This document shows, in pieces, positions 9,858 to 37,937 of a DNA stretch of 64,000 nt. A model generated the notes under the pieces. It did no database searches and was not told where the DNA came from. It saw only the letters and a program-made list of their open reading frames with translations. Origin of the DNA: Planctomycetota bacterium (lineage in GTDB: Bacteria > Planctomycetota > PLA2); the NCBI GenBank assembly GCA_021776735.1, contig JAJFFH010000024.1:87744-151743 (forward strand), given 5' to 3'. How positions within the stretch are numbered: the first letter of the stretch is position 1; each line of letters starts with the position of its first letter. A program made the translations under genes and the position numbers.

Positions 9858-10571
9858 ATGAAGGCTGCTGCGGCATTGCCCATGATCCTGTCCGCGGCCG
9901 CCCTCGGCGGCGTGTTGGTGCTGTTTGCCGCGGGTCCCGAGGCAGCCCCTCCGCGCCGCGAAGCCGAGCCCGCAACGCCGATCGGTGTGGCCTCCATTAC
10001 GTCCCGCATCGACGAACTCGAAAGGGAGATCGACGAACTCGAGCGAGAGGTCGCGCGCCTGCGCAAAGCCGCCGTGGTAACAGTGCCGGCGGCGCAGCCG
10101 GAAAGAACGCCGCTTGAGGAGGCGCGCGCCACGCCGGAACCGACGGCGGACGATAACGCCCGCGACACGAAGCCGAAGCCTAAAAAGGACGCCGGCGCGG
10201 ACCGCCGCAAGCGCCGCGAGGAGGCTCTGGAGCGTCGCCGCACCGAGCAGCTGCAGCGTCTCGTCGATGACGACAAGATCACGTCGATGACGGACGATCA
10301 GCGCCGCAAGCTCGACAAGACCCTGGAGGGCGCGCGCGAGAAGTTCGCGGAGGCATTCGGCGTGCTGCGCGTGGATCCGAAGATCAAGGAAATGTCGCGC
10401 GAAGAGCGCCGCGAGGCGATGCAGGCCGAGATGAAGCGCGTGCGCGAAGAGGTGGTGCTCGAGATGGAGGCCTACCTGCCCGCGGAGGACGCCAAGATCA
10501 TTGCGGAAACGATGCTGCGCCGCGGCAACAATCGCCGCGGCCGCGGAAACCGCCGCCGCCGAAACGACTAG
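9858..10571 (+). CDS. secreted/membrane-anchored coiled-coil protein with Arg-rich tail
   Basis: Start at MKAAAALPMILSAAALGGVLVLFAAG (signal/TM). Long charged coiled-coil (ELEREIDELEREVARLRKA...), ends RRGNNRRGRGNRRRRND. Confidence 0.55.
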   Translation: MKAAAALPMILSAAALGGVLVLFAAGPEAAPPRREAEPATPIGVASITSRIDELEREIDELEREVARLRKAAVVTVPAAQPERTPLEEARATPEPTADDNARDTKPKPKKDAGADRRKRREEALERRRTEQLQRLVDDDKITSMTDDQRRKLDKTLEGAREKFAEAFGVLRVDPKIKEMSREERREAMQAEMKRVREEVVLEMEAYLPAEDAKIIAETMLRRGNNRRGRGNRRRRND

Positions 10572-16512: not shown

Positions 16513-17069
16513 GTGAGCAGAAACAAGACGAGGGCGGTCCCGATCGGGATGCTCAGGTTGTCCGCTTTCGCCCCGCTCAGCGCCTCAAGGCCCGCCGCAG
16601 CCGCACCGCCCGCCACGGCGACGGGCCACGGGAAGAAAAAGAGCGCCCCCCCGGTGGCCGCCACGAAGCAGGCGAGGGTGCCTGCGACCGAGACCTTTCC
16701 GCGGCGCGGCGACCGGACGGAGCCGCCGACGATCGCAGCGGACGGGTCGCCCAGGGCCAAGGCGAGAATACCGCCGCACGCCGGCGCTGCGGGAAACAGG
16801 GCGACCGCGGCGGCGCACCCGGCAAAGTACAGGGTCGAACTGTTCCACCCGTGCATGTCCTTTTTGTCGAGGATGGCGCGAAACCACTTGCCGAACCAGG
16901 CCTGGACTTCGGGCGACCGGGCGCGGAGGAGGTCCAAGGCGCCCCAGGCGACGACAATGCCCGCCAGAATGCCCGCGGCGACGGGCCGGGAGAGCGGTAC
17001 GAGGCGGTAGACCAGGACGATCACGACGCCGGTCGCGTGGAAGAGCTTGCGGGAGTAGTGGACGGCCAT
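16509..17069 (-). CDS. polytopic membrane protein, CTP-dependent transferase/dolichol-kinase-like family
   Basis: 186 aa, about 5 TM segments, N-terminus MAVHYSRKLFHATGVVIVLVY typical of the phosphatidate cytidylyltransferase/dolichol kinase superfamily. The assignment is tentative. Confidence 0.45.
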   Translation of the reverse strand: MAVHYSRKLFHATGVVIVLVYRLVPLSRPVAAGILAGIVVAWGALDLLRARSPEVQAWFGKWFRAILDKKDMHGWNSSTLYFAGCAAAVALFPAAPACGGILALALGDPSAAIVGGSVRSPRRGKVSVAGTLACFVAATGGALFFFPWPVAVAGGAAAAGLEALSGAKADNLSIPIGTALVLFLLT

Positions 17070-17271
17070 ACGGGCGGTTTCGTGGCACGCTGTGGTGCGT
17101 TGGGTACAGATCCATACACGAGCGGCGAGGCGAGGGCGGTCGCAAACCCATGCGGCGGCGGTATTTACAGATTTTTTGCGGAATTTGCGGCGTAGGACCG
17201 GTGTTTGCTACGTCTATACATATGTGTGGGGCCCGGACGGGTCGAGCCGACAAAAGCAAAGAAGAAGTCCG

Positions 17272-17640
17272 ATGCCGAACCAGACGAAGAACCCCCAAAA
17301 CCGTACCCGGAACGGAAAGACGACACGCGAATCGTCCGAACAGGGCGAACTGCGTGTCCTGCGCCGTGGCACCACCGCGGTCCGCCAAGCGACCCTTCGA
17401 AAGGCCGAACCCCGGATGCACCCCATCACGTTTTGCGTGAGCTGCCAAGAGGCGATTCCCGCCAAGGCCATCACGTGCTTTCGCTGTAACGCGAAGCAGC
17501 CTCACGGCGAAGACGCCGTCCAGGTCGTCTTCTGCGACAAGTGCGAGAAGGACTATCCGGCCCGCGCGCTGTCGTGCCACCACTGCGGCCACCTGAACGC
17601 ACGCCACCCGTTGGTCCGCGGCGGCAGCATTGCCAGCTAG
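17272..17640 (+). CDS. double zinc-ribbon domain protein
   Basis: 122 aa with CxxC...CxxC...CxxC...CxxC spacing (FCVSCQE...CFRCNAKQ...FCDKCEKD...CHHCGHLN). Confidence 0.55.
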   Translation: MPNQTKNPQNRTRNGKTTRESSEQGELRVLRRGTTAVRQATLRKAEPRMHPITFCVSCQEAIPAKAITCFRCNAKQPHGEDAVQVVFCDKCEKDYPARALSCHHCGHLNARHPLVRGGSIAS

Positions 17641-17725
17641 CGGTCGCGGCCTCCGGGAACGTTCGCGCGTGTTCGGCATCGCGCGTGCCCGTGCTTCGGC
17701 GCGTCGAACCCCTTCTGAGGCAGTC

Positions 17726-17744
17726 GACGGACGGCGATGTTTGC
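17726..17744 (+). repeat. copy of the dispersed motif (GACGGACGGCGATGTTTGC; core at 17727-17738)
   Basis: Exact 12-mer at the left edge of a 760-bp ORF-free region. Confidence 0.8.
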
Positions 17745-18403
17745 TCGCTTCGGGGGGGATCCCCACATTTGAGCTGCGGGATTTCGCGCCTGCGCGAGGC
17801 CGAGTCCCGACCCCCGCGTCCACGGCTTCAACAAGCCCGGAAAAATAAGTTGTACCCGCCGGCGAGTGCCGCCCCGCCAGCGGATACAGGAGGTAAGGAG
17901 GGTCGAGGGTGTTTCGCTGCCCACCCGGCGTTGCGCCGCGTAGGCATGGGAACGTTATCCCTGGTTTCGCGAGGCGCAAACCAATGGGACCAAAAAGGAC
18001 GAATTGGGACCAAAGGACCGGAGTCGGCGTTAGTCTCGGCCTTAGGGCGGCTCCGTCAGCTCTGCGACAGCCGCTTTTGCGTTCGGAATAGATTACGCCC
18101 GCGGCTCGCTGGCCGATTCTCTGTCGCACCCTCGCGTTAGGCTTTCGTTAGCCTCGAAGATCGAGGCTGATCGCCGTTCCCGTGTTCACCACACGCGGTT
18201 CGAATGCTCAGGGTTCGATCGGCGGGGGCAGAGGCACCCACGCACGACCCATGCGGCGACCGCGGCGCTGGCGCATCCGAGGTGCGCGAGCGCGCACCGC
18301 CCTACCGGTGCAGGCCGGTGCGAGCACGCGGGAGCGAACCACCCCGGTAATGGCAACTGGACCGCCCTGATCGCGGTCGCGCCCACTTCCTACAGCTGCC
18401 AGA

Positions 18404-19153
18404 CTACCGGCCGCGATCTCCACGGGTGCGGTTGCCGCGGAACATGTTCCGTCGGCTCAGGGACTCATCCACGATTGTCTTGGCGTCTGCCGCGGCGACG
18501 AAGCCTTCCAGGTCCTTTTGGGCTTCGGCCTTCAGGCTGTCGAACTCGGTCTGGAACAGGGTCCGCATTTCTTCGCGAGGCATGCTGCGCAAGTCGTTGT
18601 TCTCGCGGATTCTGGTCCAGATCTGGGGAATGCGGCCGCGGGCGCCCAAGAGCGACTTCGCGACCCGGATCTTCTTCTTGGCGCTGAGGGACGCGATCTT
18701 GTTGTCTGCGCTCAGCTTGTCGATGTCCTCGACCACGCGATTGATGCGGTCCTCTTCACGATTGAGTTCGTTGGCCTCCGCGACCTTCTTGCGGAAGGTC
18801 TCCATCGCGGGATCGGCGGCGACCGTGACTTCCGTGCCCTCCGCAGTGGCGTCGGCAGTTTCGGTCCCGCCGCCTTCGACGGCTGTCGGTGCGTCCGACC
18901 CGTCGCCGGAGAACGGGACCATTCCGCCGCCCTCGGCGACGGCGCCCTGTCGGAGCGATGCGAGTTCGGCTTCCATACGACGCTTCCACTGCTCGTTCAT
19001 GCTGCTGTCGTCGTACGCCGGATCGGCGCCGCGTTCGGCCTGGGTCCGGCGGTTGTCCACCTTCGCCTCAAGGTCCGCCTGACCCATCCAGAGATAGGCG
19101 ACGAGCGCGAGGGCGATGACGTTGCTGATGACGAGAATGGGCACAGCCTTCAT
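18404..19153 (-). CDS. membrane-anchored hypothetical protein (single N-terminal TM, acidic/coiled-coil body)
   Basis: 249 aa, MKAVPILVISNVIALALVAYLWMG then a charged helical sequence. Confidence 0.5.
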   Translation of the reverse strand: MKAVPILVISNVIALALVAYLWMGQADLEAKVDNRRTQAERGADPAYDDSSMNEQWKRRMEAELASLRQGAVAEGGGMVPFSGDGSDAPTAVEGGGTETADATAEGTEVTVAADPAMETFRKKVAEANELNREEDRINRVVEDIDKLSADNKIASLSAKKKIRVAKSLLGARGRIPQIWTRIRENNDLRSMPREEMRTLFQTEFDSLKAEAQKDLEGFVAAADAKTIVDESLSRRNMFRGNRTRGDRGR

Positions 19154-33788: not shown

Positions 33789-34359
33789 TTTCTCCTTTGC
33801 CTCCCCCCGCGAACAGGCAGCGGCCGTGCGCACCATCGAAGCCGATGGCCAAGCCGTTCCCTCGCGCGGGATTCCTCACAAGCTCTTCGGTAACTGGCTG
33901 CCCGCTGCCGGTCTTTCCGGCAGGGAGGGCCCTATAGCTTTGCGCCACCCGGTTTCCCGGGCTTTGCCCTTATCGGAGCCGATGGGAGGAGCCTCTTTTG
34001 CCGCTGGGCCCGGATGATCCGAAACCCGCCGACTTGTCGGCTACCACCGCGCTGGGAGAGGGGCCTGGGGGCCCCGCCAGCTCATCAGCTTCCACCGGGA
34101 ACCTATCTCCCGATGCCGCACAGTCAAATCCGCTCCTATTTCGGGGAAAAAACTGACCGAAAGCAATCTCCGAAAGGCTCAATCCCGACTGGTCGCGTGT
34201 CGATCACTAGAAAGGGGACAACGGCTGGCCAAGCCGGATGTCCCGTTGTGTGCACACGAATCGAAAAACCTGATGAACAGCGACTTTTCGCCGGGATTCC
34301 GCCACTGATATCCGCCACATGGCTGATTCTGTCTGAATAGTCTGCCACGAGCCTCCCCC

Positions 34360-36693: not shown

Positions 36694-37836
36694 CTAGCAC
36701 CGCGCCTGATCCAGCAAAAACGTCCGCCAGCGGTCGATCATCGTCTGGTGATCGAAGCGATCGACCGCACGATCGCGGTGCGTCGCGCCGATTCGGGTTC
36801 GCAGGTCCACATCGACGAGCAGTGTCCTGAGGGACGCCGCGTAGAGGGTCTCGCCCGCAATCGGCACCACGAAGCGCCGCGCCTCGTCGCAGACCATGTC
36901 CTTGACGTCCCCGACGTCGGTGCTCACGACCGACTTGCCTGCGGCCATCGCCTCGGCAACGGAGAGTGGCATCTGCTCGGTGTGGCTGGACAGGCAAAAC
37001 ACGTCGAACGCGCGGTAGTAGGGCGCGGTGTCCCGCACGAGGTCGGTGAAATGGACGCGGTCGCGGAGTTGAAAGTGATCCAGACCGTTTTGCAGATCGG
37101 TCCACGCCTGGTCGTGGCCGGCGCTCTGGTCTTTCGGGGTTCCGCCGACGTACACGAGATGCGCCTGCGGAAACTCCTCGGCGATGGCCGCGAATCCGCG
37201 CAGCAGGAGCGCGGGGTTTTTTTCAGCGCGCAGGTGCGCGACGGTGCCCACGATCAGATGGTCGTCGTTGAGCCCGAGCCGCGCGCGGACATCGGATGCC
37301 GGGCCGGGCGTGAAGCGGTCGGTGTCGATGCCGTTGGGCATGTAGAGCGTCCGCTCGCGCCTTATGCCCCAGGATTCGAGCGCAAGCCGCTCCAGAACAC
37401 GCGACACCACCAGGACCGCGCTCGCCCGGCGATACACGCGCCGCCGAAAAAACAGTCGACGCGCGAGCTGTCCCGTGGCCTCGTCCTCGGCCATGCCGTC
37501 CATGACCTGGCACCAGGGCCGGACCCGGCGCAGCACGCAGCCAATCATCGGAATCAGGGAGGCCCAGTTGTAGCCGAGCACGACATCGCCCTTGAGCGCG
37601 CGCAACTGGCCTCCCAGGCCCCAAGCCTGGCGCAGACCCGGGTCGCGCGGCAGCGTCACGAACTCGATGTCCACACCGGGATCGACCTTGTCCTTGCAGC
37701 GCTCGTCCTTGCCCATGTGAACGATCGTGTGCCGGAACTCGTCCTTGAGCCCGTTCATCACGACCGCGGTGCGCACCTGGGCGCCGCCCGGACCGAACGA
37801 ATCGAAGACATGGACGATGTGCGGTTTTTGGGCCAT
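36694..37836 (-). CDS. glycosyltransferase, GT4 (group 1) family
   Basis: 380 aa, MAQKPHIVHVFDSFGPGGAQ... and ...VYVGGTPKDQ...FDVFCLSSHTEQMPLSVAEAMAAGKSVVSTDVGD... Confidence 0.8.
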   Translation of the reverse strand: MAQKPHIVHVFDSFGPGGAQVRTAVVMNGLKDEFRHTIVHMGKDERCKDKVDPGVDIEFVTLPRDPGLRQAWGLGGQLRALKGDVVLGYNWASLIPMIGCVLRRVRPWCQVMDGMAEDEATGQLARRLFFRRRVYRRASAVLVVSRVLERLALESWGIRRERTLYMPNGIDTDRFTPGPASDVRARLGLNDDHLIVGTVAHLRAEKNPALLLRGFAAIAEEFPQAHLVYVGGTPKDQSAGHDQAWTDLQNGLDHFQLRDRVHFTDLVRDTAPYYRAFDVFCLSSHTEQMPLSVAEAMAAGKSVVSTDVGDVKDMVCDEARRFVVPIAGETLYAASLRTLLVDVDLRTRIGATHRDRAVDRFDHQTMIDRWRTFLLDQARC

Positions 37837-37937
37837 GGAAGTTCAAGGCGAGCAGGAGGCCAAGCGGAAGGTCGAGAGTCTAGCTTTTGCCGGCTTGGCG
37901 GCATAGTGCTTGCGGGAAGCTTCGCGTTGGCCGCATC

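Follow-up and report, generated by a model that had tools for sequence, protein, structure and literature searches.

A probable small-RNA gene with a near-invariant C/U-rich core in the spacer between two convergent genes of a planctomycete

Bacterial small RNAs with a conserved unpaired motif are the closest described counterparts of the element studied here, a predicted small-RNA gene at 17841-17946 on the minus strand of a 64,000-nucleotide (nt) stretch of DNA from Planctomycetota bacterium (assembly GCA_021776735.1, contig JAJFFH010000024.1, positions 87,744 to 151,743; the whole stretch is called the window below). RsaE/RoxS-type RNAs of Firmicutes are independently transcribed, end in an intrinsic terminator and carry unpaired C-rich motifs (CCCC/UCCC) which pair with G-rich Shine-Dalgarno regions of several messenger RNAs (mRNAs). 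In cyanobacteria, Yfr1 consists of two stem-loops and 16-20 unpaired nt with an ultraconserved 11-nt C/U-rich motif; its GC-rich 3' hairpin with a U-tail is a Rho-independent terminator, and the stems vary in sequence (PMC2190773). The cuckoo/alpha-r14 RNAs of alphaproteobacteria (NfeR1, RSs0680) present an ultraconserved anti-Shine-Dalgarno-like motif in unpaired form, with compensatory mutations in the stems, and for NfeR1 a sigma-70 promoter and a conserved upstream stretch are described; the action proposed for the family is occlusion of the ribosome-binding site (PMC4615179, PMC10746234). According to a 2022 review, the Planctomycetes-Verrucomicrobia-Chlamydiae group had only 8 distinct annotated small RNAs, compared with 345 in Proteobacteria (PMC9029176).

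The gene lies in a gap of 763 nt (17641-18403) between two convergent genes, which the first-pass annotation had rightly delimited as a spacer of about 760 base pairs (bp) and had proposed as a candidate non-coding RNA locus. Comparison with relatives suggests that the gap is mostly ordinary spacer plus one small-RNA gene, which lies on the minus strand and forms a transcription unit of its own. We consider the gene at 17841-17946 very probably genuine, and the proposal is partly borne out by conservation above that of the flanking genes, hairpin covariation and the lack of a conserved open reading frame (ORF), but only for ~105 nt of the 763 (~175 nt with promoter and repeats), all on the minus strand. 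The features of the conserved block (~175 nt; 18013-17841) are as follows.

17946/17945 to ~17841, minus strand: predicted small RNA of ~105 nt, starting at an invariant UG and ending in the U-run
17918-17946, minus strand: 5' stem-loop (SL1), beginning at nt 1-2 of the predicted transcript
17910-17917, minus strand: A-rich linker GCGAAACA, predicted unpaired; purine/A-rich and variable in every member
17889-17909, minus strand: core CCCUCGACCCUCCUUACCUCC, near-invariant and predicted unpaired; it contains two CCUCC motifs and is the putative seed
17851-17888, minus strand: intrinsic terminator hairpin of 16 bp with a 6-nt loop, from the terminator scan
17841-17850, minus strand: U-rich tail ACUUAUUUUU, present 3' of the hairpin in every member
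17952-17979, minus strand: putative sigma-70-type promoter, with -35 TTGCGC at 17979-17974, a 16-nt spacer and -10 TAACGT at 17957-17952
18013-18005 and 17993-17985, minus strand: two direct repeats TTGGTCCCA, 20 nt start to start, at about -40 to -68

In the window, the RNA is therefore laid out as a 5' hairpin, 29 unpaired nt, and a terminator hairpin with a U-run. Yfr1 has the same architecture; here the invariant 11-mer is UCCUUACCUCC, within the 29-nt unpaired stretch. However, the Yfr1 motif ACUCCUCACAC is absent here, Yfr1 is shorter (54-69 nt, against about 96-141 nt among the members found here), the phylum differs, and the Yfr1 model of Rfam gave no match at E <= 10; the likeness is a shared design and not homology. 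With cuckoo/alpha-r14 the locus shares an unpaired C/U-rich motif, covarying stems and, in putative form, a sigma-70-type promoter with a conserved upstream stretch. In the cuckoo RNAs 2-4 hairpins present the motif CCUCCUCCC in their loops and the genes often exist in several copies, whereas here a single linear unpaired CCCUCGACCCUCCUUACCUCC stands between two hairpins, with one copy per locus and strict synteny. The window RNA does not contain the string CCUCCUCCC and matches no Rfam model, which places it outside cuckoo/alpha-r14. RsaE/RoxS differs in motif, structure and phylum, again with no Rfam match. Full-text literature searches with the core string returned nothing relevant.

The conserved block was delimited by comparison with relatives, whose loci are given as L numbers. 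L001 is an independent assembly of the same organism (100% identity over 9670 nt, with the same gene calls). Using blastn with the gap against the gaps of relatives, a single conserved block was obtained (window 17837-18026, minus strand) and nothing else. Its identity to the window is 75-76% in L002, 73% in L007/L008 and ~65% in L005 and L006, while the flanking protein is only 40-57% identical in these blastn-compared relatives and 32-57% over relatives overall. Compared with L002, the RNA is 83% identical and the flanking genes 68-77%, and the spacers are at noise level.

In total, Planctomycetota genomes and metagenome contigs yielded 14 distinct complete copies and one partial copy, with synteny preserved and one copy per locus, and the window contains no other copy. 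The complete copies of the window, L002, L005, L006 and L007, as well as the partial one of L019 (a member cut short within the core by the end of its contig), were reached through homology of the 249-amino-acid (aa) protein encoded beside the gap. L022 and L023 were retrieved by homology of a 186-aa protein of the same cluster together with a covariance model (R1), not by the core pattern. Thus 8 lineages (7 complete and the partial L019) were retrieved without the core as query, and 7 of the 14 members by the core pattern; the evidence for an invariant core comes mainly from the 7 complete lineages found independently. The exact 21-nt pattern was used in one genome-collection scan and one metagenome-collection scan, which yielded three Planctomycetota metagenome-assembled genomes (L010-L012) and five metagenome contigs (L014-L018, with identical copies in L014 and L018). 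All genuine hits share the synteny, as seen by tblastn with the cluster proteins, and an archaeal 21-mer hit (L013; R1 score of 20.7 bits) was rejected as a chance match within coding sequence. Variants such as L022 and L023 are missed by the exact pattern (the relaxed form is CCCTCNAYCMTCCTTACCTCC), and the spread of the family is underestimated. L020 and L021 were left out because the relevant flank is missing. R1 locates the RNA at 17841-17946 on the minus strand of the window with 89 bits, the window sequence being in its training set; for members outside the training set it gives 66.8 bits (L022:223-322) and 64.7 bits (L023:4319-4426).

The whole gap might instead lack a functional RNA and be a long spacer or a degraded pseudogene whose hairpins arose by chance. 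This description fits ~590 of the 763 nt, which are unconserved, unstructured and without family match, and relatives hold a GT4 glycosyltransferase gene and/or a DUF3891 gene in the gap. However, remnants of GT4 and DUF3891 are undetectable here, and the 175-nt block is conserved, covarying and syntenic in at least 14 lineages, which already refutes the idea for 17841-18013. For the region as a whole we hold it to be very improbable. The gap had also been described as a structured region, which is true of the small-RNA part alone: the 144-nt segment 17984-17841 (the RNA and the promoter-proximal 38 nt) has a folding z-score of -4.46, while the two spacers fold like shuffled sequences (z = -0.89 for 18027-18403 and z = +0.15 for 17641-17840).

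Structural evidence comes from the terminator, which covaries among the members. Across 14 sequences, 94.2% of the cells pair and 12 of the 15 pairs are compensatory, having changed on both sides. None of 500 shuffles reached any of the measures, and slid controls showed 35-47% pairing. A GC-rich hairpin with a U-run and compensatory changes is a generic mark of small-RNA genes. SL1 varies in length, and RNAalifold on MAFFT alignments was unsuited to the 5' part, so per-sequence folds were used for it. A hairpin of at least 5 bp begins at nt 1-4 in all 14 members, with very different arm sequences; the compatibility of arms across sequences is 0.44, against 1.0 for own arms (1.0 by construction), and the mean folding z-score is -2.85. 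A pairing of GGGCUA with CCCUCG of the core was rejected for its inconsistency among members, and these letters are better read as the -10 region.

The RNA is assigned to the minus strand, since the U-run stands 3' of the hairpin on this strand only, the terminator contains 18 G-U cells on the minus strand against 2 if read on the other, and R1 scores 65-97 bits in sense but 15-26 bits in antisense (hairpin only). A small protein encoded by the block, either on the plus strand behind the Shine-Dalgarno-like GGAGGTAAGGAGG or on the minus strand across the core, is hardly credible. The plus strand of the window does have AGGAGGTAAGGAGGG and then a GTG at 17909, which opens a 60-aa ORF; in relatives, however, the same sequence is followed by no ORF or by ORFs of 1-94 aa in different frames with unrelated peptides. 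On the sense strand, a frame with a start codon that is open across the core was not found in all members. The indels of the conserved block are not multiples of 3, codon-position GC is flat, and the core has no synonymous-type, third-position-like variation though the neighbouring proteins have diverged to 32-57% identity. The absence of a conserved ORF together with conservation above the neighbours is a second generic mark of a small-RNA gene.

Upstream of the RNA, 12 of 12 members show the pattern TTGCnn-(15-17)-TAnnnT-N5-TG where their sequences align, the spacer being 16 nt long in 10 of them and unrelated in sequence. In the window the invariant TG is at 17946-17945, 6-7 nt downstream of the -10 hexamer with five nt in between. 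L022 and L023 keep the promoter geometry, L022 with CG for TG. Fixed spacing combined with free spacer sequence indicates the footprint of a sigma-70-type promoter with a start at the TG, and we infer that transcription starts at the invariant UG (17946/5) from a TTGCnn-16-TAnnnT promoter. An own promoter and a ~105-nt RNA product are thus predicted with good support from the comparison. The first-pass annotation had listed duplicated GGGACCAAA words, which are indeed present (TGGGACCAAA at 17985-17994 and 18005-18014) and are the only one of its listed features that belongs to the small-RNA gene, as conserved direct repeats upstream of the promoter. Of the 14 members, 11 keep them as TTrGynnCA-N10-12-TTrGysnCA and the L010/L014 clade lacks them; the tandem arrangement is unique in the 64-kb window. 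The TTGGTCCCA repeats are candidate binding sites for a transcription regulator.

These observations also bear on whether the block is instead the 3' untranslated region (UTR) or terminator of the upstream operon (the 249-aa gene, accompanied by DUF3891 or not), from which a 3'-derived small RNA might be processed. The block always lies downstream, and on the same strand, of a 249-aa-family or DUF3891 gene. It starts 0-40 nt past the upstream stop in L006, L007 and L005, and the terminator scan gave no other canonical terminator for the 249-aa gene between 18403 and 18014. However, the fixed elements around a variable spacer are the trace of a promoter and not of an RNA motif, the 5' hairpin stands at the predicted start in all members, and in the window the block begins 390 nt past the stop codon, beyond an unconserved spacer. 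In L005 the upstream gene has its own strong terminator (13 bp, with TTTTT) directly before the first repeat, and L019 is arranged likewise, indicating that the upstream transcript ends there before the small-RNA promoter. We therefore judge an origin as a 3' UTR improbable.

The gene order around the RNA is conserved. Read in the direction in which the 249-aa-family gene is (+), the cluster consists of an FG-GAP/ASPIC gene (-), a 247-aa gene, the 249-aa-family gene (+), DUF3891, the gap, a GT4 glycosyltransferase, the zinc-ribbon gene (-), the 186-aa gene, and genes for a metallophosphoesterase, an extracytoplasmic function (ECF) sigma factor, an anti-sigma-like protein and a PDZ protein, where GT4, DUF3891 and the 247-aa gene are variably present or absent. 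Among 5.8 billion sequences, only 12 homologues of the 249-aa protein were found. The 186-aa protein is annotated in the sources as a dolichol or polyprenol kinase family protein of Planctomycetota, and NCBIfam confirmed the ECF sigma factor, with a weak anti-sigma-E-like hit and HtrA-like PDZ domains for the genes that follow.

In many relatives the small RNA and the zinc-ribbon gene are separated by GT4 (L002:11220-12296, L006:3094-4158, L022:380-1477 and L023:4473-5567); the window, L005, L010 and L014 lack it and show no detectable remnant of it. The block might accordingly act in cis on GT4, as its 5' leader or attenuator, and have been left as an orphan here when that gene was lost. A same-strand GT4 follows in L002, L006, L012, L015, L016, L017, L022 and L023, sometimes only 11-60 nt past the U-run, and an end in a terminator is what attenuators have. 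A leader role is nevertheless quite improbable, because the element is intact without GT4 and the GT4 starts have their own -10-like hexamers (TATGAT, TATCAT, TAGGAT) 6-14 nt upstream. Block and core are unaltered, the core identical, where no same-strand gene comes next (window, L005, L010, L014, L011), and a GT4 remnant is not detectable in the window. A riboswitch or leader would be expected upstream of a same-strand gene in all members, but in the window, L005, L010 and L014 the convergent zinc-ribbon gene comes next. No alternative antiterminator fold, ligand-pocket-like conservation or Rfam riboswitch match was seen either. The hexamers themselves (TAGGAT, TATCAT and TATGAT; L006:3075-3096, L002:11195-11222, L022:355-382 and L023:4448-4475) suggest that GT4 mRNAs are leaderless or have very short leaders, with a promoter abutting the small-RNA terminator.

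The most conserved part of the RNA is its core. As DNA, the 21-mer CCCTCGACCCTCCTTACCTCC has a single occurrence in the window, and tolerating up to 3 mismatches adds no other. Of the 14 complete members, 11 share it unchanged, L006 has 2 substitutions and L022/L023 have 1 (variant CCCTCTACC); three upstream positions vary in these members, and the 11-mer UCCUUACCUCC is invariant in 14 of 14. For 12 members, the mean unpaired probability is 0.75-0.97 over the 21-nt core and 0.82-1.00 over the 13-nt CCUCCUUACCUCC. A conserved, unpaired C/U-rich stretch of this kind is what a seed looks like. In L011, an insertion of ~40 nt between the 5' hairpin and the core resembles a degenerate core duplicate (CACACCCTCAAAATCTCTTACCT), as though a second copy of the seed module were decaying.

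The core contains CCUCCUUA, the 3'-terminal octamer of Escherichia coli 16S ribosomal RNA (rRNA), and CCUCC twice, and therefore its complement GGAGGUAAGGAGG looks like an extended Shine-Dalgarno sequence. By analogy with the RNAs described above, the small RNA may act by base-pairing in trans on purine-rich ribosome-binding regions, which we take to be its most likely function. In this mechanism, the unpaired core with its two CCUCC motifs would pair with target mRNAs, the regions contacted would be purine-rich Shine-Dalgarno or ribosome-binding regions (GGAGG / UAAGGAGG-like), and the pairing would block binding of the 30S subunit and thereby alter translation or stability of the target. For the gene and this mechanism taken together, our confidence is only slightly better than even.

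Several results weigh against that combined statement. The window contains 4 sites complementary to the invariant 11-mer, with 7.9 expected, so they are not enriched, and the best duplexes in a scan of the window are G-rich tracts inside coding sequence. No conserved complementarity was found in the start regions of 35 syntenic neighbour genes. Most of these genes are without a strong Shine-Dalgarno sequence, and with such sequences rare near the locus, the target set, if any, is small and not visible here. The 21 near-invariant nt exceed a typical seed, and could equally mean a protein-binding site or a highly conserved RNA partner. On the side of transcription, a generic consensus promoter scan did not flag the promoter site, and start site and promoter are deduced from comparison alone.

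Two sites came to light in these searches. The intergenic sequence at 37853-37878 (+), GGAGGCCAAGCGGAAGGTCGAGAG, is a partial match to the core complement (duplex of -30.7 kcal/mol); it adjoins a glycosyltransferase-like gene starting at 37836 (-), and no plus-strand gene start could be linked to it. The 5' UTR of the 186-aa gene is conserved between 17070-17110 (-) and L002:12824-12863 as GTACCC..CGCACCACAG.GTG.CAC.AAACCGC, and has no complementarity to the small-RNA core.

The length and constancy of the core could also be explained if the RNA is real but serves as a protein sponge or decoy, its core binding a single-strand RNA-binding protein or mimicking the 3' tail of 16S rRNA for a factor that recognises this tail. 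The near-invariance of 21 nt, more than most seeds, across lineages whose flanking proteins are only 32-57% identical would suit such a role, as would the failure of the local search to find complementary sites. A gene for a small basic zinc-ribbon protein is moreover syntenic with the RNA wherever the flank suffices, and the same alternative was proposed for the invariant motif of Yfr1 (PMC2190773). However, each RNA carries one motif copy while known protein sponges carry many, and a 5' hairpin, an unpaired motif and a terminator form the layout of base-pairing small RNAs. We regard the sponge or decoy as unlikely, if worth keeping in view. A somewhat more plausible, still tentative idea is that the RNA is an anti-Shine-Dalgarno mimic, a single-copy regulator in which the invariant CCUCCUUA-CCUCC would imitate the 16S tail. 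Most genes of this phylum seem to be without strong Shine-Dalgarno sequences, and the mimic would compete with the ribosome for the few messages that carry one, or titrate a factor binding the 16S tail. The mimic would be wired through the regulator of the TTGGTCCCA repeats into a conserved envelope-biogenesis cluster, comprising the polyprenol-kinase-like gene, GT4, and the ECF sigma, anti-sigma and PDZ protein genes.

The remainder of the gap and its surroundings contain the following features.

17272-17640, plus strand: zinc-ribbon gene (122 aa; double zinc ribbon, Pfam DZR)
18404-19153, minus strand: 249-aa gene, matching no family
18014-18403: upstream spacer, from the stop of the 249-aa gene to the repeats, holding both perfect hairpins
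17641-17840: downstream spacer, from the small-RNA terminator to the stop of the zinc-ribbon gene, with one dispersed-motif copy
17541-18140, plus strand: shadow ORF of 199 aa, a mechanical ORF call
16585-18129, minus strand: shadow ORF of 514 aa, a mechanical ORF call

The gap had been called free of frames longer than about 70 codons, which is wrong, as the ORFs of 199 aa and 514 aa traverse it. Both were considered as genes and rejected. Their products are rich in Arg/Pro/Gly/Ala, they have no Pfam match, and codon-position GC is flat over 17675-18400 (maximum minus minimum <=0.18; the flanking genes have 0.3-0.55). Both have the appearance of GC-driven shadow frames, and the gap is therefore non-coding in substance.

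Perfect hairpins do exist in the upstream spacer, at 18150-18168 and 18281-18298, as do the T-loop-like words TTCGAAT/TTCGATC that had been pointed out with them. A perfect-hairpin scan gave 4 nested hits (2 distinct hairpins) in the gap, with a mean of 0.81 per 763-nt tile and as many hits as the gap in 3 of 83 tiles. However, this spacer has no similarity to the equivalent spacer of L002, the closest relative, its structure is no better than that of shuffles, and no function was detected for 18014-18403, with neither Rfam nor tRNA match; no support was found for a function of the hairpins or of the words. The downstream spacer is likewise unconserved. ARAGORN found 0 genes for tRNA or transfer-messenger RNA (tmRNA) in the 64-kb window, and the loose resemblances to RNase P RNA, tmRNA and signal recognition particle RNA that had been weighed by eye were supported neither by ARAGORN nor by the Rfam scans. 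The gap matched no family at gathering scores or at E <= 10. In the window scan with Rfam 15 (cmscan, gathering scores) no family was found at the element, the sole window match being a riboswitch elsewhere; a permissive scan of 17400-18650 (E <= 10) gave two chance-level hits only, both outside the element, and 11 related loci gave no match. The two strongest features of the gap, both on the minus strand, had not been listed at first reading: the terminator hairpin with its T-run (17888-17851) and the C/U-rich core (17909-17889).

As relatives carry GT4 and DUF3891 in the gap, gene loss probably created part of the spacer. DUF3891 and the 247-aa gene are present or absent around the 249-aa gene in the same manner as GT4. 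A pseudogene remnant was sought by tblastn with the GT4 and DUF3891 proteins of relatives over 17400-18650 and rejected, since only noise was obtained; with composition correction off, the hits were on the wrong strand and arose from the Arg/Ala/Gly-rich shadow frames.

The downstream spacer contains a copy of a dispersed motif, correctly noted at 17727 before (ACGGACGGCGATG at 17727-17739, plus strand). The motif has 25 copies in 64 kb on both strands, against 0.37 expected, and is absent from all of 22 other loci (relatives), and it is therefore genome- or lineage-specific. The extended consensus is ~rAGCrwACGGACGGCGATGty with unrelated flanks, at sites including 902, 4094, 6071, 6261, 12766, 13763, 16191, 23184, 24143, 44521 and 63455, and the internal ATG opens a long ORF in only 2-3 cases. 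Elsewhere in the window, a c-di-GMP-I riboswitch aptamer (RF01051) was found at 33886-33978 (-) with 61.5 bits against a gathering score of 35, and no obvious -35/-10 pair upstream of it. The 249-aa protein has a second, distant paralogue at 10251-10517 (+), which tblastn detected with the C-terminal part (29% identity, E = 1e-8).

In summary, the RNA represents a new small-RNA family of a familiar kind, so far sampled only in a sparsely sequenced planctomycete lineage. As a candidate for study the locus is well delimited, its start, end, promoter, regulator sites and seed all being predicted; R1 already detects members which depart from the seed pattern, and the seed is short enough for a direct target search and mutagenesis. 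If the anti-Shine-Dalgarno-like seed works as proposed, the family would offer an entry to post-transcriptional control, and to the role of Shine-Dalgarno pairing, in a phylum with unusual envelope biology.

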